Assembly: GCA_004431415.1 (NCBI GenBank) | Contig: QPMI01000149.1 | Coordinates: 1-48,601, forward strand | Direction: 5' to 3' | Source: Cyanophora paradoxa CCMP329 | Taxonomy: Eukaryota > Plantae > Glaucophyta | Length of the DNA stretch: 48,601 nt | Part shown: positions 1 to 10,820 of the stretch, piece by piece | Numbering within the stretch: position 1 is the first letter of the stretch | How the letters are laid out: every line of letters starts with the position of its first letter | The notes under the pieces: generated by a model | The model's database searches: none | What the model was told of the DNA's origin: nothing | Seen by the model: only the letters and a program-made list of their open reading frames with translations | Made by a program: the position numbers and the translations under genes

Positions 1-2084
1 GTTGCCACCGTCGCTGAAAGACGAGCACCGTTGCCGCCCTACCAATGCTGCTGCGTAGTGAGCGTCTCCGCTATTTCCTGCCACCTGGCCGGACCCAGGA
101 TACACCGTAGCATCCGTCAAGTTCCTATGTAGCTCGAGCCACCGCCACCTCCAACATTCTTGCTATTGGGTTCTCTGACACTCCGCTCCTGCTGGACCAG
201 AGCCTCCACCGAAGTAACCCCACCACCCACCACCGAACCTGTAGCCGCTTGAATCAGGCCCAGTCTCTCCACCTTGGCGCAAAGTTCCCGGGTTGCTGGG
301 CCTGGCCCTGAGGCCACAACACCGGCTCCGCCAGCGGTTTGGGTGCCTCCTTGAGCCGGTATCTCTCCGGTTACTCCAACCAACCCAGCCGCACCACCGG
401 TCAACCCCCCGCCTACTCCCCCGCCGCCATTCGAATCACATGTACCCCACCTCGGCCCTGCAACAACCAAGTCGGTCCTGCAACGCGCTGAATTGCAGAA
501 CGACCACCACCGCGCCGTTTTTGTACTCCGGATCGACGCTATGGCTCCAGCCCCTTCCACCACCTCCGTAGACGGTAGCAGTGGCAGTCCCCGATACACC
601 CTTTGGGCCGCCGCATCCAACAACAAGGTGAGCGTCTCCCCCGAGGACACAGCCAATGTACCAACTACGCAAGCACCCGCGCCTCACGGACCCCCGTACC
701 TGCGCGTTCTCCGCCTCCACCCCCGGCCGCCCATACGATGACACGCACAGCCACAGTCCCCGTTGTACTACGAAAGTCTGGTCGGCCCCGGTGTAGGAGA
801 ATGTACCCAAAACAGGAGCGTTTGCAGTTGTTGCACTGGCAGACGAGGACTGAGGGCCTTCCTCGCCGATCTGGTTGACGCCCTTGATGGTGTAAGTGTA
901 AGTGTTCCGTAAACGGTCGTTGTGTCCGAAAGGGGCTGCTCGTGTCGCTGGCAAGGAACACGCCACCCTGTAGATGTTGTAGGAGACGGTGACGCCGTCA
1001 CCGGCACCGACCACTCGAGCACAACAGGCTGTGCTGCCCCCGCCGCGGGGGTTGCAGTGAGCCCAGTGGGCGCCCCCGGGTCCGTGTGACGTACGCCGCA
1101 ATACTCTTCGGCCCTCCCCTCCGTGTTCGTCGCGGAGATCTGGTACTCGTACCCTGTACCCCAGACGGTGGTCGTGTCGCTGTAGGAGTTTGGTCGCGGA
1201 GTCTGTGAGGTAGGCCCCGTCTCTGTAAATCTTGTATCCCGTCGCTCCGTGGACGCAGTCCAGCTGAGGCTGACAGGCTGCTGCTGGTCGTTGGGTGCTG
1301 ATGCCGTCACGTTCGTGGGGGCGTTGGCATAGTCCAGACCAGGAGCGGATCGGACTTGTCGTATTCGACACCGCCCACGATGCCGGCCACCTGGTAAGAG
1401 TATTCCGTGCCCCACGTAGAGCAGTGCTATCGTCAATGTACGAGGTAGACAGGGCACTGCTCGCAAATCCGATTGGCGTACCGTTCCTGTAAATTCGAAT
1501 CGAGTCCGCGCCCTCCATGGCCACCAGTTGATTGTGACGACTATGGCGGGTTTCGGGAAGCCCGAAGACGCGGGGCCGCCCCCGGCAATAAAATCGCCGT
1601 AGGTCTGGGCCGTGGCGGTCGTGAGCGTGGTGTAGGCTTCGATCTGCGGGCTGAAGCCGCCTATGCCTTGGAAGAGAATGTAATTGCTCATGGCACCCTC
1701 GTGGGTGTAGAGAAGCGACTGTGCGTAGGTTGTGGGCGGGGCTTTGCCATCAGAGCCGTGCTGCTGCTGCCCTGTTCGCGAACCGCCGCCACGCGGTAGA
1801 GTCGCTGGGCCCCAAACTAAAGGGAGAGTCCGTGTAGGTGACGGTTGGCGCATTCACCGTGGCCACGAGATCCCAGGGGCCGTTGATGCTGGTCGCCCTG
1901 TACACCTTGTACTTGACGGCGTTGGTGACCGCGACCCAGTTCAGCTGAAAGCCGTACGTACTGTTCCCGTTGTTGAGCACGGAGCCCGATCGCACCTGGG
2001 GCCTGCCACAGTCAGCGAGATCGGCTCCACGCCATACTGCGGAGCCTGCACCACCTGCTTTTTCACGAATACGAAGCGGGGCAT
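1..2084 (-). pseudogene. Frameshifted FN3-repeat + glycine-rich protein (putative virion fibre/attachment protein); may be two genes split at the ATG at 1691
   Basis: Stitched frames give FN3 motifs (LNWVAVTNAVKYKVYR; APTNVTAS..VSLSW..ATGYKIYRDG; PGAPTGLTAT..YTYTIKGVNQIGEEGPQS), then FSYTGADQTFVV..VWAAGGGGG and GGGGGSSYI. ATG in GAAAATG at 2084. Confidence 0.65.
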
Positions 2085-2122
2085 TTTCCTCTACGATCCG
2101 AAAAAATATCTGCCCCGGGTAA

Positions 2123-2800
2123 ATGACTTCCAACTGGTACCAGACCCTCAGCGGCTCACTTGACGTTGGCAACAACACCAAGGATTTCGCACGCATACCC
2201 TCCGGCAGTTACGTCGACGTCTTTCTGCAGAATCCCGTCGTGATTCAGGTCGTTCAGAACGCCTACGCCACGCCCAAGATTTATTCCTACCAGCTCTTCT
2301 TCGACCCTCTGAGCCTCAGCGCAGAGGTTATCGAGCTGCTGCACGAATCAGGACTCGTGAAAAGGTGGCACCTGCCACGGCCACTGCCAACGTCTTGCGC
2401 TGTCTCGAGGTCAAGTTCAGGGAGACGGGGTACGGCCCCACCGTGAACCGGTACCCCAGTTCTTCGAATCTTCCGGGTACGGGAACTTACCAGATGAGGG
2501 GTACGCTCAAGGGCGACGTGCTCTTCACGAAATTCAATCCAAGTCCCGCGACCCTGGGGCCCTCTACACGGGCGGCAACCCACGCGGCTCGACTCTACCC
2601 CGCTTCCCCTTCACCTTTTTCAGGTTCCAGGTCTTCCCCTCTCCTACGCCGCCGACCAGCCCCACTTCAGCACGGGCGCCAGCCTCTGCGCGGAGCTGCG
2701 TGAGTGCTCGATTTCCTACGCGTACGGCACCGACGCTGACTCTGTGCCTGGGGCCCGCGTCATGAACATCGGTGGCGACATCACCCTCTTTCACGGATAA
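2123..2800 (+). pseudogene. Putative virion structural protein A (about 225 aa, about 3 frameshifts), paralog of protein B
   Basis: MTSNWYQ..QNPVVIQVVQN..SGLVKR/..LRCLEVKF../GGNPRGSTLPRFPFTFFRFQVF/AELRECSISY..TLFHG* with TAA at 2798-2800. Collinear similarity to 2824-3635. Confidence 0.55.
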
Positions 2801-2823
2801 TCTTTCTCATTTGAGGTCGCAAA

Positions 2824-3635
2824 ATGCCGACCACCTCGGCCACCATCGTGAAGACCGTGTCTGCCGGCTCGATCGTCCCCGATTTCTACGGCAACGCTGG
2901 GAACGTGGCCAACGCAGGGACGGACAAGGTGGAGTGGGACGGAAACTACGCCACCCCGCTCACCGTGAGGGTCCAGAATCCCGTCATGTTGCGCGTCACC
3001 TCCAACGATTTCGAGAATCCGCCTCCTGCTCCGTGTACGTGTACTTTGACATCGACTCGGGCGTGAGCGCGGATGAGGCGGAGGCGCTCTGGCTCTCGGG
3101 CCTCCTGAAAAAGATAGAGCCCTCTGTGCCTGATCGGCCCGCCATTCGCGTGCTCGAACTCAAGTTCACCGCTAACACCGCCCTCACTCGCAAATTCGGG
3201 AATGGTGCGAATCCGAACATCAAAACGCATTTAGATGGCGCCCTCATCGATGCCACACACAAGACCACGCAGGCCGTTCCCTTTGAGATGTACAACCTCT
3301 GGAAGATGACCGCAAAGGAGATGATGACGAATGCCACACCGGGCGGCGCCTCGGGTACCGATTATTCATACGGCGCCTCGAATCCCCGTACCCAGGTCTG
3401 GCCCCGGCTCCTCTTCACGAAATTCACTTTCAAATTGTACAACAACATCGCCGGAATGCCTACCTCTGGAATGGTCGTGGGCTCTACCCTCATGGCCGAA
3501 CTAATTGAGGCAGAGGCGGACTACACGACTGCGACTACCAACTCGACAGCGCCAGGCGCCGGAGCCGAAGTTTACGTGGCCTGGGAAACGGTCGGTCGCG
3601 AGTACGACACCAAGATTCACACCACTAGCGTCTAG
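2824..3635 (+). CDS. Putative virion structural (capsid-like) protein B, about 270 aa, one frameshift near 3020
   Basis: AAAATG start. ORFs 2824..3066 and 2772..3635 join into a globular, T/N/G/V-rich, beta-like protein with no introns. Confidence 0.55.
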
Positions 3636-3640
3636 ACTGG

Positions 3641-3987
3641 CTAAGCTGCATTAGCACCTGTGTCGCCTCCATCATCTCCCGAATCTCCTCGCTCTTCTCC
3701 TGTAAATTGGCGTACCCCCTCTCTTCTTGCGAATCTCCGACATTGATGCCAGCGCAGGTTCTCCCTCCTGTAGTCCAGCGGGTTGCCGTTGATGTGTTCC
3801 ACGTAGCGTCCACGTGGCGACTTCCCGAGGATCAGCTGGGAGAGGTAGTGCTTGCGCCCTCCAAACGTCTTGCTCACCCTGTCCCTGTCCACTCTCCAGG
3901 GAAACTCCAAGGCACTCGGGGTACGTCCGAGTTGACCAGGACGTTGTAGGCGACGTCTTGCGAGTCGGTGCACCGGAGCAGGGCCAT
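3641..3987 (-). CDS. HNH endonuclease (HNH_3 / phage-type), frameshifted
   Basis: Motif YLSQLILGKSPRGRYVEHINGNPLDYRRENLR. CAAAATG start at 3987 is in another frame. Confidence 0.75.
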
Positions 3988-4008
3988 TTTGCCCTAGGTT
4001 CAGAAAAA

Positions 4009-4131
4009 CCTGGGACTTGGGACTTGGACTGGGACTTGGGACTTGGGACTTGGGACTTGGGACTTGGGACTTGGGACTTGGGACTTGGGACTTGGGACTT
4101 GGGACTTGGGACTTGGGACTTGGGAAGAGTT
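4009..4131 (+). repeat. (GGGACTT)n heptamer array, about 16 units
   Basis: Direct reading. Bounded by CCTGGG and AAGAGTT. Confidence 0.95.
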
Positions 4132-4231
4132 GAAACCCAGGTCCCGGCCAGACTTTCTCCAGGATCAGAAATTTGTCAGACAAGTCAGGTGAGTTTTTCT
4201 ACCGACTTTTTTACTCCTACCACTCCTCATA

Positions 4232-4278
4232 CTCTTTTTTACTCGTAGTCTTTTTTACTCGTAGTCTTTTTACTCGTA
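4232..4278 (+). repeat. Three near-identical 15-16 bp direct repeats ((G)TCTTTTTTACTCGTA)
   Basis: Direct reading, with further degenerate copies at about 4190-4230. Confidence 0.8.
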
Positions 4279-4558
4279 TCCCATCTCGTACCCTCCTTCT
4301 CTCGACATCTCACACGAAAACTCCTACCCCTCTTCACATCCGTTTTCGGTTGCATACTCTCGTGAGCTTTCATGTCCAGTATCATGCTACAAGTCGTACA
4401 CCAGTTCAGACTCTACCTCGCTTGAAATCTCACCTGGAATGTCACCAGAAACGTCATATGCAGATTTCCGTACCCCTCTACATGTCTGCCCGGTGGTTAG
4501 GGACTTGGCGCGGCAAACTCTCAGATCCAGAGAGATTCTGGGCCCAGACCCTGAGTCT

Positions 4559-4620
4559 AACTCTTCCCAAGTCCCAAGTCCCAAGTCCCAAGTCCCAAGT
4601 CCCAAGTCCCAAGTCCCAGG
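4559..4620 (+). repeat. AACTCTT(CCCAAGT)7CCCAGG array, inverted relative to 4009-4131
   Basis: Direct reading. Confidence 0.95.
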
Positions 4621-4691
4621 ATCGCGCCAAGTCGTAACTGAATAGTCGGCCAATTTTTACAAGTATGTACAATGGAATGACGCAATACTAT

Positions 4692-5758
4692 TTACAGCAT
4701 CTCAAAGTCAGAGTCATCGTCATCGGAAACCAACTCAATGAGGCCCTCGGGCGCCGACTTAAGGGGAATGCGGGGAAGGGACTGCGCTGCCTGCACCAAG
4801 TCCTGCCGCTCGCGCTCGCGCTGCGCCGCCAAGGCCGCTGCCGCCTCTGCCTCGCGCTGCTGCTGAGCCTCGATGCGCGCCTTGAGCTCGGCCGCCTCCT
4901 TCTGCTTGCGCTCGGCGATCCGCGCCTTGTTGATCTGGTACTGGACAAGGCGCTCGTGGCGCCGCTTGCGCTCCAACTCCTTGCGGAGCTCGTTGCAGAG
5001 GACGCGCTTCTCAATGGTCTTGACGTGCTGAGTCAGGCGCTCGCTGTAGTGTGACGTCACGCGAGAACGGGCAATGCCGGCGCCGAGCTTCAAGTCCTTC
5101 TCGTGTGCCTTGGCGGGGTCCTTGACGCGCTCGGAGTTGTCGGTGAATGACGTAGTCTCCATGAACTTCTTCTTGACGATTGACTTGGTCTTGATAATGC
5201 GGCGCTTGCGAGTCGGGTTTTCGTTGTCGCCTTCAGAGTCAGAAGACGACTCAGAGTCGTATGGAATCGGCACGTCAAAGTCGATGAAGTCGTTGATGTC
5301 AGACTCGACGTCAGAGGCCTCGGACTTGGCGTCATCGGCGGGCTCGGGGGCGGGCTCGGCGACGGGCTGAGGGGCAGATGACGACGATGACGGAGGGGGG
5401 TAATTCGTGAAGACTTGAGGGGGATAGGCCCAGGCGAGCGTCTCGGCAGCAGACTCGGCGAAAAGCTTGGGGTCGCCCCAGCCGTTGGCGTCTTGACCCA
5501 GCCGGGGACGGGGGCACGTCGACGGGGGCTCGGGCTTGGGTTGCTTGGACTTGGATTTCTTGGCCTTGGACGTGAAGGCGGACTTGGGAGAAGTTGCACT
5601 TCGGGGCCAGTGGCGCGTAAGATGGCATAATTGTAGATGTACCCCAGAGCGTCGGCGCGCTGCTCCATCTCAGGGGTAGCCCCTTGAGTGCCACCGGAGT
5701 TAGCCCACGTTGCTTGGACAAAGGCGAAGTCCTCGGCAAGCTCAGCGGGAATCGACAT
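4692..5758 (-). CDS. Orphan protein with acidic tract, basic NLS-like motif and coiled coil (frameshifted in the middle)
   Basis: MSIPAELAEDF.. joined to ..DSESSSDSEGDNENPTRKRRIIK..ELRKELERKRRHE..EAAELKARIEAQQQRE..DFEML*. Confidence 0.6.
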
Positions 5759-6173
5759 CTGCGCAAAGGGAAAAGAAATCAGCAAAGGCAAAACGTGAGG
5801 TGACTGTGAGGGCGGACTTGTGAAAATTCGGAGAGGCAGGTTTCCTTGGGCTGAGAGAAGGCGGCGAACCCGTTTCAAGAGTGAGGCAAAATGGCGGCGG
5901 ACCGCGGTTTTGTGGGCGAATTTTTTCCTGGGCTAGTTCGCAACGGAAAACGTTGCCAACTGGCCTGAAAAAGCCAAATTTAGCGTTGGACCGAAGACAG
6001 AAAAAGAGCCGGCCTGACGGAAATTGCCCGAGTGCGTCCGCCGAAGGTCGAGTCTCGGATGGGGGGTACACCCTCAGGGGCCCCCCTGGCCCCTCACCCT
6101 GGTAGTACCCTCTCAAAGGGATTTTCGAAGCCGTACAATTCTTGGTAAGTCTCGTAATCCGGGCTGTACCCCC

Positions 6174-6563
6174 TCACAATCTGCGGGAGCCCATTGAAAG
6201 CCTCCGTCTATCCTCTCTCAATTCCCTGCGGAAAAGTCTACGGTCTTCTCGAGCTTCGCGCGTCACGCCAGCTGGGCGTGGTCTATGATTGTTAGGGTTG
6301 TCGTAGCCTGGTCCCACCAGCCTCACGAAATTTTCGCGTATGGCCTCGGGGAGACTCTGGAAACGGTTCGTTGCGTGGAACTCGATCCATTCATTGAATC
6401 GACGCGGATATTGACGGATGACTTCAAGCACGCCCTGTGTGTTGGGCTCTGGTGTTATGTCGGGAATGTCATGTCCTGTGAGGTGCCAACGCCAGAACTC
6501 GCGCAGCCTCTCGAATGCCATATGCAACTCAAAGGGGAAATCGTAATAGAGATTGCCTGACAT
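6174..6563 (-). CDS. Orphan 129-aa protein with Arg-rich C-terminus
   Basis: AAAAATG start. Intact ORF MSGNLYYDFPFELH..REDRRLFRRELREDRRR. Confidence 0.55.
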   Translation of the reverse strand: MSGNLYYDFPFELHMAFERLREFWRWHLTGHDIPDITPEPNTQGVLEVIRQYPRRFNEWIEFHATNRFQSLPEAIRENFVRLVGPGYDNPNNHRPRPAGVTREAREDRRLFRRELREDRRRLSMGSRRL

Positions 6564-6613
6564 TTTTCTCCCCCTCCGAAAATTTCCCCGTTTTGAGTCC
6601 AGACTCTGATTCC

Positions 6614-6668
6614 AACTCTTCCCAAGTCCCAAGTCCCAAGTCCCAAGTCCCAAGTCCCAAGTCCCAGG
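6614..6668 (+). repeat. AACTCTT(CCCAAGT)6CCCAGG array (third copy)
   Basis: Direct reading. Confidence 0.95.
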
Positions 6669-6798
6669 TCCCATTTTTCTCCCATTTCAGTCCGAGATTT
6701 TGCCCAAGTCCAAATCCGGGCCCGGGATTCGAACCCTCGTTTTCGGTCGATTTCACGCGTGAAAAACGCACTTTTCGGCCTTTTCCGATTTTTCCTTT

Positions 6799-6931
6799 CT
6801 CGCGATCGCAGAAATGCCCCCGATCTCGAAATCGCGATCGAAAAGGGTCGCGATCGGGAGAAAGTCGCGATCACCAGGGTCGCGATCGGGTCGCGATCGC
6901 CGCGATCGCCAGCCTCGGAGGGGGTACCCCC
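6799..6931. repeat. Cluster of about 7 (T)CGCGATC motifs ending in the palindrome GGGGGTACCCCC
   Basis: Direct reading. Confidence 0.7.
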
Positions 6932-7344
6932 ACAGCTGTTGCGGCGGTTATAAGAACCTCCGCAATCCAAGCGTCACTTCCGAGTCTCGAGCTCTCGGAG
7001 TTGCCTTTTCGCGTTTGGCCCATTGATGGCCCTCCTATATATATTATTTCTATGCAATAGAGCTGACCCGATCGAGCGCAGACGTCTTGAGGGAGCGTCG
7101 GCGACGGTCAGAGGCCAAGTTCGCACCTGCAAGCAAGGTTCGCGAGTCTCTCTCCTGCCCGACGCCCTCGAGAGCTAGACAGCGGGGCCCCAGCCCTGGC
7201 GGCGTCTCTCAGGTGCCGCTGCCAGTGCAAGGCTGCGCTGCCTAGATAGATCTATAGATTCCTTGCGCGCGCGCGCGCCCCTGAGATTGTTTTTGCTGAG
7301 GCTCACTCCACCATCAGGCACAATCAGGCGCCGGCCTGCTCCCC

Positions 7345-7625: not shown

Positions 7626-8739
7626 ACGCTGTAAATATTCACGTACATATATATGCAGCTGAGCGCAGGGCCCGGCCGCGGCGGCGGGCGGGGCGGCGGG
7701 GGGGGCGGGGCAGGGCCGAACAAGTGTCAGAACCGTTCGGATTCCGCCGCGGTTCTGACGTGGTAGAACACATTTTTGCAGCGTTTCTGCGGCGGAATTT
7801 TGGTTCCGACACGAATTCTGGCGAATGATGACAAAATTATGGCAGATGTGCTCATGTGTCAGAAAGCGGAATCGGCCGTTCCGACAGCCGGAACAGAGGC
7901 AGAAAACTTTTTCTGCTCTCCGTTCCGTCCGCCAGAACGGACCCCCCCTTCCACCTGTGAGGGATCCCGGAGCTCGACAAGACGACGAAGGACCGTAAAA
8001 GATAAGGGGAGCGGGCTCGAGAAGACGAAGACGACTGTTTGTTACGTGAGTGCAACGTAACGTAACGCACTTCGGACAGCGTGAAAGATGAATATTGCAA
8101 TTGATACGAACACCTGGTACCAGCTGCAGGGGTACCTAGCTGTCCTGCAGCTGGTAACGTCAACGACTGCCCGACCCCAGGCTCCCCTCCACCCCTCTCT
8201 CGCTCGCCTAGTAGCCCCAGCTCCGCGCCCCGCCCCCCCAACCCTCTGCCCATGGTGCCTCCGTCCCCTTGCGTCCCACCCCCCAATGCGCCACCCCCTC
8301 TCTCTCCTTCCGTATGCCGAACCCGGCTGCCCACCCGACGATTTCGAAACCCTGGCCTCGCCTGATCTCATCGTAGATTATCACCTGTGGGGGGCGTCCC
8401 CCGTCGGCTACTCACTGCGCAGGTGCTGAGGGGACACCAGCGCACTCAGCGCCCTTCCCACCTCGCTGTCTGCTGGGTCTGAAGCCCTGGAGAGTCGGGG
8501 CCAGTGACAGCAGGAGCCCTGGGCAAGCCTTTGAAGCTAGTATAGTCGGCCACCTCAGGAGTAGGAGTCTGTACTGCGGTGTTCCTGAATATACGAGGGA
8601 TCACGGGAAAAAAAATCCTGCAGCTGGTACCTTGATTTAATCCTCCTAGTAGGCGCATCCGCGCATCGAGAATCGAGATGCGCTGCTGCGCTGTTGCTGC
8701 TAAGAAGTTTGCTGTAGCAGCTTACGCTCTGTGCTCCCG

Positions 8740-9392
8740 ATGGCTCTCTCCCGGCGCCCCCAGCGGCGCTCCCTCCTCAGCCTGGCAGGCTTTTCCATGT
8801 GGTCGTGCTCCTTGTCCTCCTCGCTTCCCCCGCTGCGCATGCCAGCGGGGCTCGGGCTTCGAAACGCGCTAAGACCGCCTCTCCTAGCCCCTCGCCTTCC
8901 CCTCCGCCTGCGCCCACCGAGTCGCTGGCGGCGGCTCCCACTGAGTCCCCCGCCATAACGCCCACGCCGACAACTAGTCCGGCACTATGTTCCGGCACTT
9001 CGGGCCCGCAGCCCGCGGCGGGGCCCCAAACGTTCGACCAGGCTGCTGCCATGGAGCTCATATGCATCTACCAACTTCAGCAGCGCAATGCCTTTCTTGA
9101 AAATGTGCATCTGCAGCGCCCGGGCCCGTCCGCCGTGCCGCCGGCCCCCTCTGCCACTTCGTCCCCCATCCCGCATTATAATCTCACGGAGGGCTCCACC
9201 AACGCCGGCTCGTCTTCATCTGGCAACACCGCGCGCGAGCGCAATGCCCGTGAGCCCCTTTCCGAGCGTGAACGCCAGCGCCTCCACTATGAGGGGCGCT
9301 GCTGCGCCTCGCGCGCGCCGCGTGAGGTGAGCGCAGGCAGCGGGGCGGGGCGGGTGGGGTGGGGGTACCGGATCGACCCGGGGTACCCCTGA
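8740..9392 (+). CDS. Possible hypothetical protein with hydrophobic N-terminal segment and Pro/Ser/Thr-rich region
   Basis: ORF 8799..9392 (VVLLVLLASPAAHA..SPSPSPSPPP..MELICIYQLQQRNAFLE). Needs a frameshift to reach the ATG at 8740. Confidence 0.3.
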
Positions 9393-10820
9393 CGAAGGCC
9401 CTGGAGCGGGGGCCGGGCTGCTGTCGGGCTCGCGGCCCTGCTGCGCCTCGCGCGCGCCGCGTGAGGTGAGCGCGGGCAGCGGGGCGGGGCGGGCGGGGTG
9501 GGGGTACCGGATCGACCCGGGGTACCCCTGACGAAGGCCCTGGAGCGGGGGTCGGGCGGCTGTCGGGCTCGGGGCGCTGCTGCGCCTCGCGCGCGGCGCG
9601 TGAGGTGAGCGCGGGCAGCGGGCGGGGCGGGCGGGTGGGGGTACCGGATCGACCCGGGGTACCCCTGACGCGTACGAAGGCCCTGGAGCGGGGGCGGGCG
9701 GCCATCGGGCTTGCGGCCGGGCTCGCGGCCCTGCTGCGCCTCGCACGCGGCGCGTGAGCGCTGGCAGCGGGGCGGGGCGGGCGGGTGGCCCGGGGTACCC
9801 CTGACGAAGGCCCTGGAGCGGGGGCCGGGCTGCTGTCGGGCTCGGGGCGCTGCTGCGCCTCGCGCACGCCGCGTGAGATGAGCGCGGGCAGCGGGGGGGG
9901 GCGGGTGGGGTGGGGGTACCGGATCGACCCGGGGTACCCCTGACGAAGGCCCTGGAGCGGGGGCCGGGCGGCTGTCGGGCTCGCGGCCCTGCTGCGCCTC
10001 GCGCGCGCCGCGAGAGGTGAGCGCGGGCAGCGGGGCGGGGCGTGCGGGGCGGGGGTACCGGATCGACCCGGGGTACCCCTGACGAAGGCCCTGGAGCGGG
10101 GGTCGGGCGGCTGTCGGGCTCGCGGCCCTGCTGCGCCTCGCGCGCGGCGCGTGAGGTGAGCGCGGGCAGCGTGGCGGGGCGGGTGGGGTGGGGGTACCGG
10201 ATCGACCCGGGGTACCCCTGACGAAGGCCCTGGAGCGGGGGCCGGGCTGCTGTCGGGCTCGCGGCGCTGCTGCGCCTCGCGCGCGCCGCGAGAGGTGAGC
10301 GCGGGCAGCGGGGCGGGGCGGGCGGGCGGGGGTACCGGATCGACCCGGGGTACCCCTGACGAAGGCCCTGGAGCGGGGGCCGGGCGGCTGTCGGGCTCGG
10401 GGCGCTGCTGTGCCTCGCGCGCGCCGCGTGAGGTGAGCGCGGGCAGCGGGGCGGGACGGGACGGGGCGAAGGGCGGCGAAGGGCAGGGAGGCGAGCTGCC
10501 GGGCGCACCCGCAGCGTCGCGTCGGCCTCCTCCTGCGGCGGCAGCCCGTCCTCATCGCCGCCGCCCGCGCCGCCCTCGCCGCCAGCGGACGCCCGACTCT
10601 GCGGGGAGGACGCGGCCAGCGAGAGGGAGGCGGGAGGCGTCGGTTGAGGCCGGGCGGGACGGGGCGGGGCGGCCGCGGGGCGGGGCAGCGCGAGCTGCCG
10701 GGCGCACAGGAAACGTCGCGTCAGCTGCAGGCTCCTCGTGCGGCGGCGGCCCGTCGACGTCCTCAGCCGCTGAGCCTCCTCGTGCAGCGGCGGCGCGGCC
10801 TCTGCGATCTGCAGATCAGT
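9287..10820 (-). CDS. Putative multi-exon low-complexity repeat protein encoded by tandem exon-intron units (5' end unresolved)
   Basis: Phase-0 60-nt exons AQQ(G/R)(R/P)EPDS(S/R)P(A/T)PAPGPSSG are flanked by AG and GTACCC. Terminal exon reads AQQRPS* with the stop at 9287. Confidence 0.5.
9293..10460. repeat. Tandem repeat, about 139-bp unit, about 8.5 copies
   Basis: GTACCGGATCGACCCGGGGTACCCCTGACG recurs at about 9365, 9504, 9641, (9790, partial), 9916, 10055, 10194 and 10333. Confidence 0.95.

Follow-up and report, generated by a model that had tools for sequence, protein, structure and literature searches.

Heptamer-repeat modules between the genes of a likely endogenous polinton-like virus of Cyanophora paradoxa: possible protein-binding arrays

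In the herpesvirus HHV-6A, telomeric integration requires arrays whose repeat copies that of the host's telomeres. Origins of the phage satellite P4 and of SaPIs show inverted sets of iterons round an AT-rich core, and there is a remote extra set. The hr repeats of baculoviruses have been proposed as origins and enhancers (PMC6669502). The polinton-like virus (PLV) Gezel-14T carries a repeat of >300 bp that is present both within its terminal repeat and at an internal position, and inverted repeats in the end modules found in PLVs and in virophages are proposed to act as an origin (PMC11296320). G-rich heptamers of bacteria are described with the G-strand antisense upstream of an open reading frame (ORF) and sense after a stop codon, within 50 nt (PMC4692102).

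Three arrays of the form AACTCTT(CCCAAGT)nCCCAGG, here termed A1, A2 and A3, are present in a 48.6-kb stretch of DNA from Cyanophora paradoxa (the window). All are found in a block with a GC content per kb of 54–62% (positions 1 to ~7040) vs 72% in the host part. The right boundary of the block can be placed roughly, at 6.9–7.2 kb, and its left part runs past the window edge. The block and the features within it are:

1..7040, no strand: gene-dense block of lower GC content, the putative end of a multi-copy endogenous virus
2123..3635, plus strand: paralogous genes J1 and J2, ~260 aa each
3641..3987, minus strand: HNH_3 endonuclease gene, frame-split here, with 17 homologous gene models
4009..4131, minus strand: array A1, AACTCTT, 14 perfect CCCAAGT units, two units one base short, and CCCAGG
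4132..4186, minus strand: inner arm of A1, with 68% inverted likeness to the inner arm of A2
4187..4502, no strand: cassette core, non-coding, with a pyrimidine-rich plus strand and three 16-bp repeats at 4233–4278
4503..4558, plus strand: inner arm of A2, with 68% inverted likeness to the inner arm of A1
4559..4620, plus strand: array A2, AACTCTT, seven CCCAAGT units and CCCAGG
4692..5758, minus strand: orphan gene O, ~355 aa, acidic and then coiled-coil-like, frameshifted here
6174..6563, minus strand: ORF of 129 aa, a putative gene without homologues
6561..6683, plus strand: A3 module, a perfect 12-bp direct repeat (6561–6572 and 6672–6683) round a 99-bp segment with A3
6614..6668, plus strand: array A3, AACTCTT, six CCCAAGT units and CCCAGG

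A1, A2 and A3 are the only perfect arrays with at least five 7-mer units in the window, and a 13-mer of the heptamer repeat has 27 matches there vs a mean of 0.13 and a maximum of two in shuffled sequence. The unit is non-palindromic. The C-strand is the minus strand in A1 and the plus strand in A2 and A3, and the number of units differs (six in A3, seven in A2 and 16 in A1). As genes nearby are frame-split too, sequencing indels may account for the two short units of A1. The three copies of this 100–130-bp module lie in gaps between the genes of the element. A1 terminates 21 nt upstream of the start codon of HNH, A2 is 71 nt beyond the stop codon of gene O, and A3 is 50 nt ahead of the 129-aa ORF and ~400 bp from the putative end of the element. 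The sequence AAAATG is the start context near both A1 and A3.

The same heptamer expands easily elsewhere, as seen by a scan of prokaryotic genomes for five CCCAAGT units, which gave 113 loci, 102 of them with both flanks readable. The entry word AACTCTT occurs in 0/102 of these control arrays and the exit word CCCAGG in 5/102, whereas both words are present in 3/3 window arrays. Judged by these boundary words, the three window arrays descend from one ancestor. The array together with its entry word has no match in viral contigs and one in metagenomes, which is bacterial, intergenic and unrelated; five plain units have one match, an unrelated prophage. Apart from simple repeats, neither of these loci is similar to the window. 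Heptamer-derived peptides were also found in unrelated contigs. In the prophage contig (1–17971), 7-mer repeats of many kinds occupy intergenic DNA; one of them, with nine units of the window's heptamer, sits between adjacent genes that read by eye as terminase- and portal-like. A search of the open-licence literature for the doubled heptamer gave unrelated matches only, and the passages retrieved on elements of this species or group contained, for the terms searched, none on such arrays.

A1 and A2 are inverted relative to each other, and their likeness extends inward through the inner arms (4132–4186 vs 4503–4558), where 40 of 59 columns are identical (68%), a score reached by 0/200 shuffles. 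The pair also contains a 55-bp perfect inverted match. On the entry side, A2 and A3 have another 17 of 23 bases in common (0/200 shuffles), and the entry flanks of A1 and A3 show no significant likeness (40/200 shuffles reach the score). The core between the inner arms is ~315 bp, and has no Rfam match, no tRNA and no match in phages. The lowest-GC 100-bp window of positions 1–7040 (36%) is at 4171–4270; it should be pointed out that the 71 bp after gene O have a GC content of 39%, i.e. low GC is common to the element's intergenic DNA. These findings agree with an earlier note on this DNA, which described three arrays with common entry and exit words, an inverted A1/A2 pair alike for approximately 55 bp inward, and a non-coding core of ~310 bp. 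Its proposal that the arrays are copied modules and not random microsatellites is supported by the likeness of the arms, that of the A2/A3 entry sides, and the bacterial control. The explanation it offered as a refutation, a common dispersed microsatellite of the host, does not hold within the window, as the 41 kb of host DNA have no array.

Some other readings of the cassette were tried and set aside. Folding gives a z of −8 for 4009–4620 and −0.5 for the core alone, which has no stable fold; the strong fold is that of the arrays pairing with each other. A hidden gene in the core was dropped because its long open frames come from the pyrimidine-rich strand, and because 16 copies have no gene model separating HNH from O. 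CCCAGG as a splice site was also considered and dropped, and a bacterial promoter scan is uninformative for this host.

Short repeats bracket two of the three arrays. The first 11 bases of the A2 inner arm form a perfect inverted repeat with 4623–4633, and the A3 module has the 12-bp direct repeat listed above, which resembles a target-site duplication; each was equalled in 1/1000 shuffles and 0/2000 background windows, and a repeat flanking A1 is not significant (119/1000 shuffles), these tests having been made after the repeats had been noticed. No direct repeat of 2–12 bp, and thus no target-site duplication, flanks A1–A2 or A1–A3. The 12-bp duplication is a second copy of the start-codon context of ORF 6174–6563, in frame and 111 nt upstream. 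From its ATG at 6674 the frame reads through A3 into the ORF and gives 166 aa. ORF 6174–6563 has no homologue among proteins of 70–226 aa, and neither the 129- nor the 166-aa form is on record. A second cluster of subterminal repeats is present at 6800–6909, between A3 and the putative element end, where a 10-bp TCGCGATC-type word occurs seven times.

The genes around the cassette belong to a family with many copies. J has six clusters among 1.84 billion representatives, with 20 proteins on 19 contigs, all labelled Cyanophora paradoxa. O, searched at lengths of 163–522 aa, has 28 clusters with 55 sequences, all from EukProt, and the ten clusters opened are Cyanophora paradoxa. Searches of viral contigs yielded no locus with a relative of J, O or HNH. 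Gene order is conserved: O is within two gene numbers of J on 18 of the 19 J contigs (17 by contig and number, one by adjacent accession). Of the 17 HNH models, 16 have the gene number next to that of O, so no gene is called in the cassette interval there. J and O are consecutively numbered on 11/18 contigs, where HNH may thus be dispensable or uncalled. Compared with intact homologues, the window's J2, O and HNH genes are each frame-split, presumably from assembly indels or decay. A jelly-roll fold of J is a lead only (Atlas 0.89 and 0.86, predicted fold with a pLDDT of 31, PDB sequence searches empty or weak). The gene at 1–2083 was read by eye as a fibronectin/glycine-rich fibre, a reading for which searches of Pfam, PHROGs and PDB gave no confirmation. 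Ahead of gene O, at 5759–5830, is a 3′ splice-site-like sequence (a pyrimidine tract, then CAG abutting the ATG), which suggests that the 5′ UTR has an intron and that transcription is nuclear and of host type.

As expected of a PLV, the block is a multi-copy, gene-dense insertion with a GC shift from the host. The supplement of PMC10120064 lists 366 capsid hits for Cyanophora paradoxa. Column counts that we made from Table S6 of PMC12220804, which covers 156 glaucophyte elements, give 40 with HNH_3, 85 with rve integrase and none with tyrosine recombinase, as well as 49 with the PF03175 polymerase, 40 with D5_N/PF08706 and 38 with COG3378; P4/D5-type primase-helicases are thus frequent in this set (PMC12220804). 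Given the copy number, the conserved gene order and these published surveys of capsids and elements, the block is likely to be one end of a polinton-like endogenous virus. No gene for a capsid (double jelly-roll major capsid protein), packaging ATPase or integrase was found in the 7 kb present, and the element exceeds the left edge; a recombinase was not found in the window.

The 41-kb host part has eukaryotic genes (kinases, a mitochondrial carrier). Several other features were observed to the right of the block. A second stretch of moderate GC content (53–68%) at 7700–9250, just right of the putative junction, has no Pfam match and is possibly another repeat or element. At 9293–10468, 2 kb from the element end, a GC-rich unit of 139 bp, which has a palindromic stretch inside it, is repeated in tandem ~8.5 times; this array is likely a host minisatellite or satellite. 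An intron-containing gene at 33700–35850, in a 53%-GC island, has a RING finger match below cutoff, and B-box, coiled-coil and MATH-like parts by eye (TRIM-like).

Alleles of the family genes were typed from gene models, with untyped or third-type rows dropped from each table. Markers within a gene are linked (13/13 in J, 22/22 for two markers in O, and 23–24/26 for other O markers), whereas there is free assortment (6, 6, 1, 3; p = 0.58) between the alleles of HNH and of the O C-terminus, which flank the cassette. This fits movement of HNH as a module bordered on one side by the cassette. Against exchange specific to the cassette, J and O alleles are still partly linked across the cassette and HNH (4, 0, 2, 9; p = 0.011), and HNH may move by itself. 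Majority-rule polishing of a repetitive assembly (PMC6704402) can also create false mosaics. In the O family the N-terminal 100 residues occur in several very different versions, the C-terminal part is nearly constant, and the alleles form a patchwork.

The window modules can be compared with each of the systems described above. With P4 and the SaPIs they have in common inverted sets of a short word round an AT-rich core and a remote set; in contrast, the iterons of those origins are spaced and are not perfect tandem 7-mers, and the window has no cognate primase-helicase. The likeness to HHV-6A is in G-rich tandem arrays near a viral end, but the window motif and the glaucophyte repeat differ, and the insertion lies outside telomeric DNA. 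Baculovirus hrs likewise occur as several clusters of repeats within a viral genome, homologous to each other, variable in length and intergenic, but an hr unit is an imperfect palindrome of ~30 bp and not a perfect tandem 7-mer (PMC6669502). The hrs also belong to a different virus group, and since the window modules lack a palindromic unit, we say only that they may work like hrs. In Gezel-14T, a subterminal repeat and an internal direct copy bracket a gene block beside a homing-type nuclease, as in the window; however, that block has a recombinase and a primase-helicase where the window has orphan genes, and the window module is ~100 bp, based on a microsatellite, and has a third copy that is inverted (PMC11296320). 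The GGGNATC repeats of Xanthomonas and Nostoc, like the window arrays, have a G3N4 unit, variable unit number, non-coding positions near ORF ends (21, 50 and 71 nt in the window) and G4 potential, but they are dispersed genome-wide and prefer four units (PMC4692102). The window has three co-descended modules in a eukaryotic element, and within it the arrays are not dispersed into host DNA.

The reading that we prefer, tentatively and at less than even confidence, is that the modules are the element's own multi-site protein-binding arrays for replication and/or expression, similar in action to the baculovirus hr repeats, with A1/A2 as a candidate origin. A replication origin was also among the roles offered by the earlier note, and it is plausible. 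The module would have been copied locally by duplication or template switching, the short flanking repeats being possible footprints, and slippage may maintain perfect arrays while their flanks diverge. A1 and A2 could be loading sites for an initiator or helicase, from the element or a helper virus, that would open the AT-rich core to serve as an origin; A1 and A3, close to start codons, may double as enhancers, A3 being a subterminal copy. The repeats might also give element copies places for module exchange. Consistent with this are the boundary words, the confinement of arrays to the element, the lowest-GC 100 bp and the triple 16-bp repeat inside the inverted pair, the fixed gene junction (J–O, HNH–O), the free assortment of HNH and O alleles beside tight linkage within genes, the frequency of primase-helicases in glaucophyte elements, and the precedents of hrs and Gezel-14T. 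Against it are the ease with which arrays of at least five units arise (the 113 prokaryotic places and one prophage), the unequal unit numbers, inner arms only 68% alike, low GC that is widespread in the element's intergenic DNA, units that are non-palindromic, unlike hr cores, and family replication genes that lie outside the window.

The main competitor is a neutral or mildly selfish G-rich heptamer with one origin and two local template-switch copies at a stall-prone G-tract, kept by slippage and having no role. The many unrelated genomes and repeat-derived peptides noted above are as this would predict, and the short perfect repeats flanking A2 and A3 are typical of local duplication. A1 and A2 also obey the bacterial placement rule, A2 at 71 nt exceeding its 50 nt. 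But A3 violates the rule, all three arrays are in intergenic gaps of a compact element, two of them facing its most AT-rich stretch, and the boundary words are exact in all copies while adjacent flanks drifted to ~70%; we consider a neutral repeat rather unlikely, if by no means negligible. Arrays acting on expression only, as promoters or enhancers of HNH and ORF 6174–6563 with A3 possibly a repeat-count frame switch, would account for the 21- and 50-nt distances of A1 and A3 from an AAAATG start and for the duplicated in-frame start context. That A1 and A3 are oppositely oriented to their genes, that A2 lies behind a stop codon, and that the ORF has no homologue and no form on record make this improbable. 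About equally improbable is an internal origin of the satellite-phage type, with facing arrays, an AT-rich core and a remote third array, combined with an A3 frame switch on the terminal gene; if true, an endogenous virus of an alga would have a device for phase variation. A nested non-autonomous transposon, with A1–A2 as a 612-bp MITE-like unit, or arrays as the 3′ tails of truncated retroposons, could explain why the homology has a sharp boundary at CCCAGG and extends inward from it (for 55 and 23 bases) and why the A3 duplication is target-site-like. This is very unlikely: a MITE would be expected to have flanking direct repeats, which neither A1–A2 nor A1–A3 has, the inner arms have diverged, and no copy is present in the 41 kb of host DNA.

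The earlier note had further considered a telomere mimic, an invertible segment and a resolution or packaging site. A mimic directing integration to the telomeres of the host, as in HHV-6, would suit a G3-tract heptamer with a G4 pattern and an array ~400 bp from the putative element end. The G-quadruplex potential seen by the note is indeed present as a pattern in 3/3 arrays, but as patterns of this kind also match 118 places in the host part it is not distinctive. The telomere-like polarity stands for A1 and A2, whose G-strands both point into the core, and fails for A3, whose G-strand points toward the neighbouring ORF. Moreover, two of the three arrays are internal, every G-strand 3′ end enters unique sequence, copies of the element are on dozens of contigs, and the 41-kb flank has ordinary kinase and carrier genes and, like the rest of the window, no tandem TTAGGG. 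The array motif ACTTGGG differs from the TTAGGG made by the telomerase of Glaucocystis, a glaucophyte other than the host, in a source whose passage does not name Cyanophora paradoxa (PMC3622300). A telomere mimic is thus highly implausible. A programmed invertible segment, or a resolution or packaging site cut by the adjacent HNH nuclease, would be in keeping with the 55-bp inverted match, the fixed place of HNH beside the cassette interval (16/17 models) and the packaging role suggested for a PLV HNH (PMC12220804). It is nonetheless improbable: no recombinase was found in the window, 0/156 glaucophyte elements of the published table have a tyrosine recombinase (PMC12220804), the core showed no gene that could be switched, and HNH may be dispensable or uncalled on 11/18 contigs.

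If the arrays are neutral, they represent ordinary repeat expansion within a known kind of element. The replication strategies of most polinton-like viruses are described as unknown (10.64898/2026.07.28.741278), and PLV origins have so far only been proposed, for terminal repeats. With protein-binding arrays as the preferred reading, a 612-bp candidate origin with at least 50 family copies, in an alga that can be cultured, would make the question of how these elements replicate a testable one.
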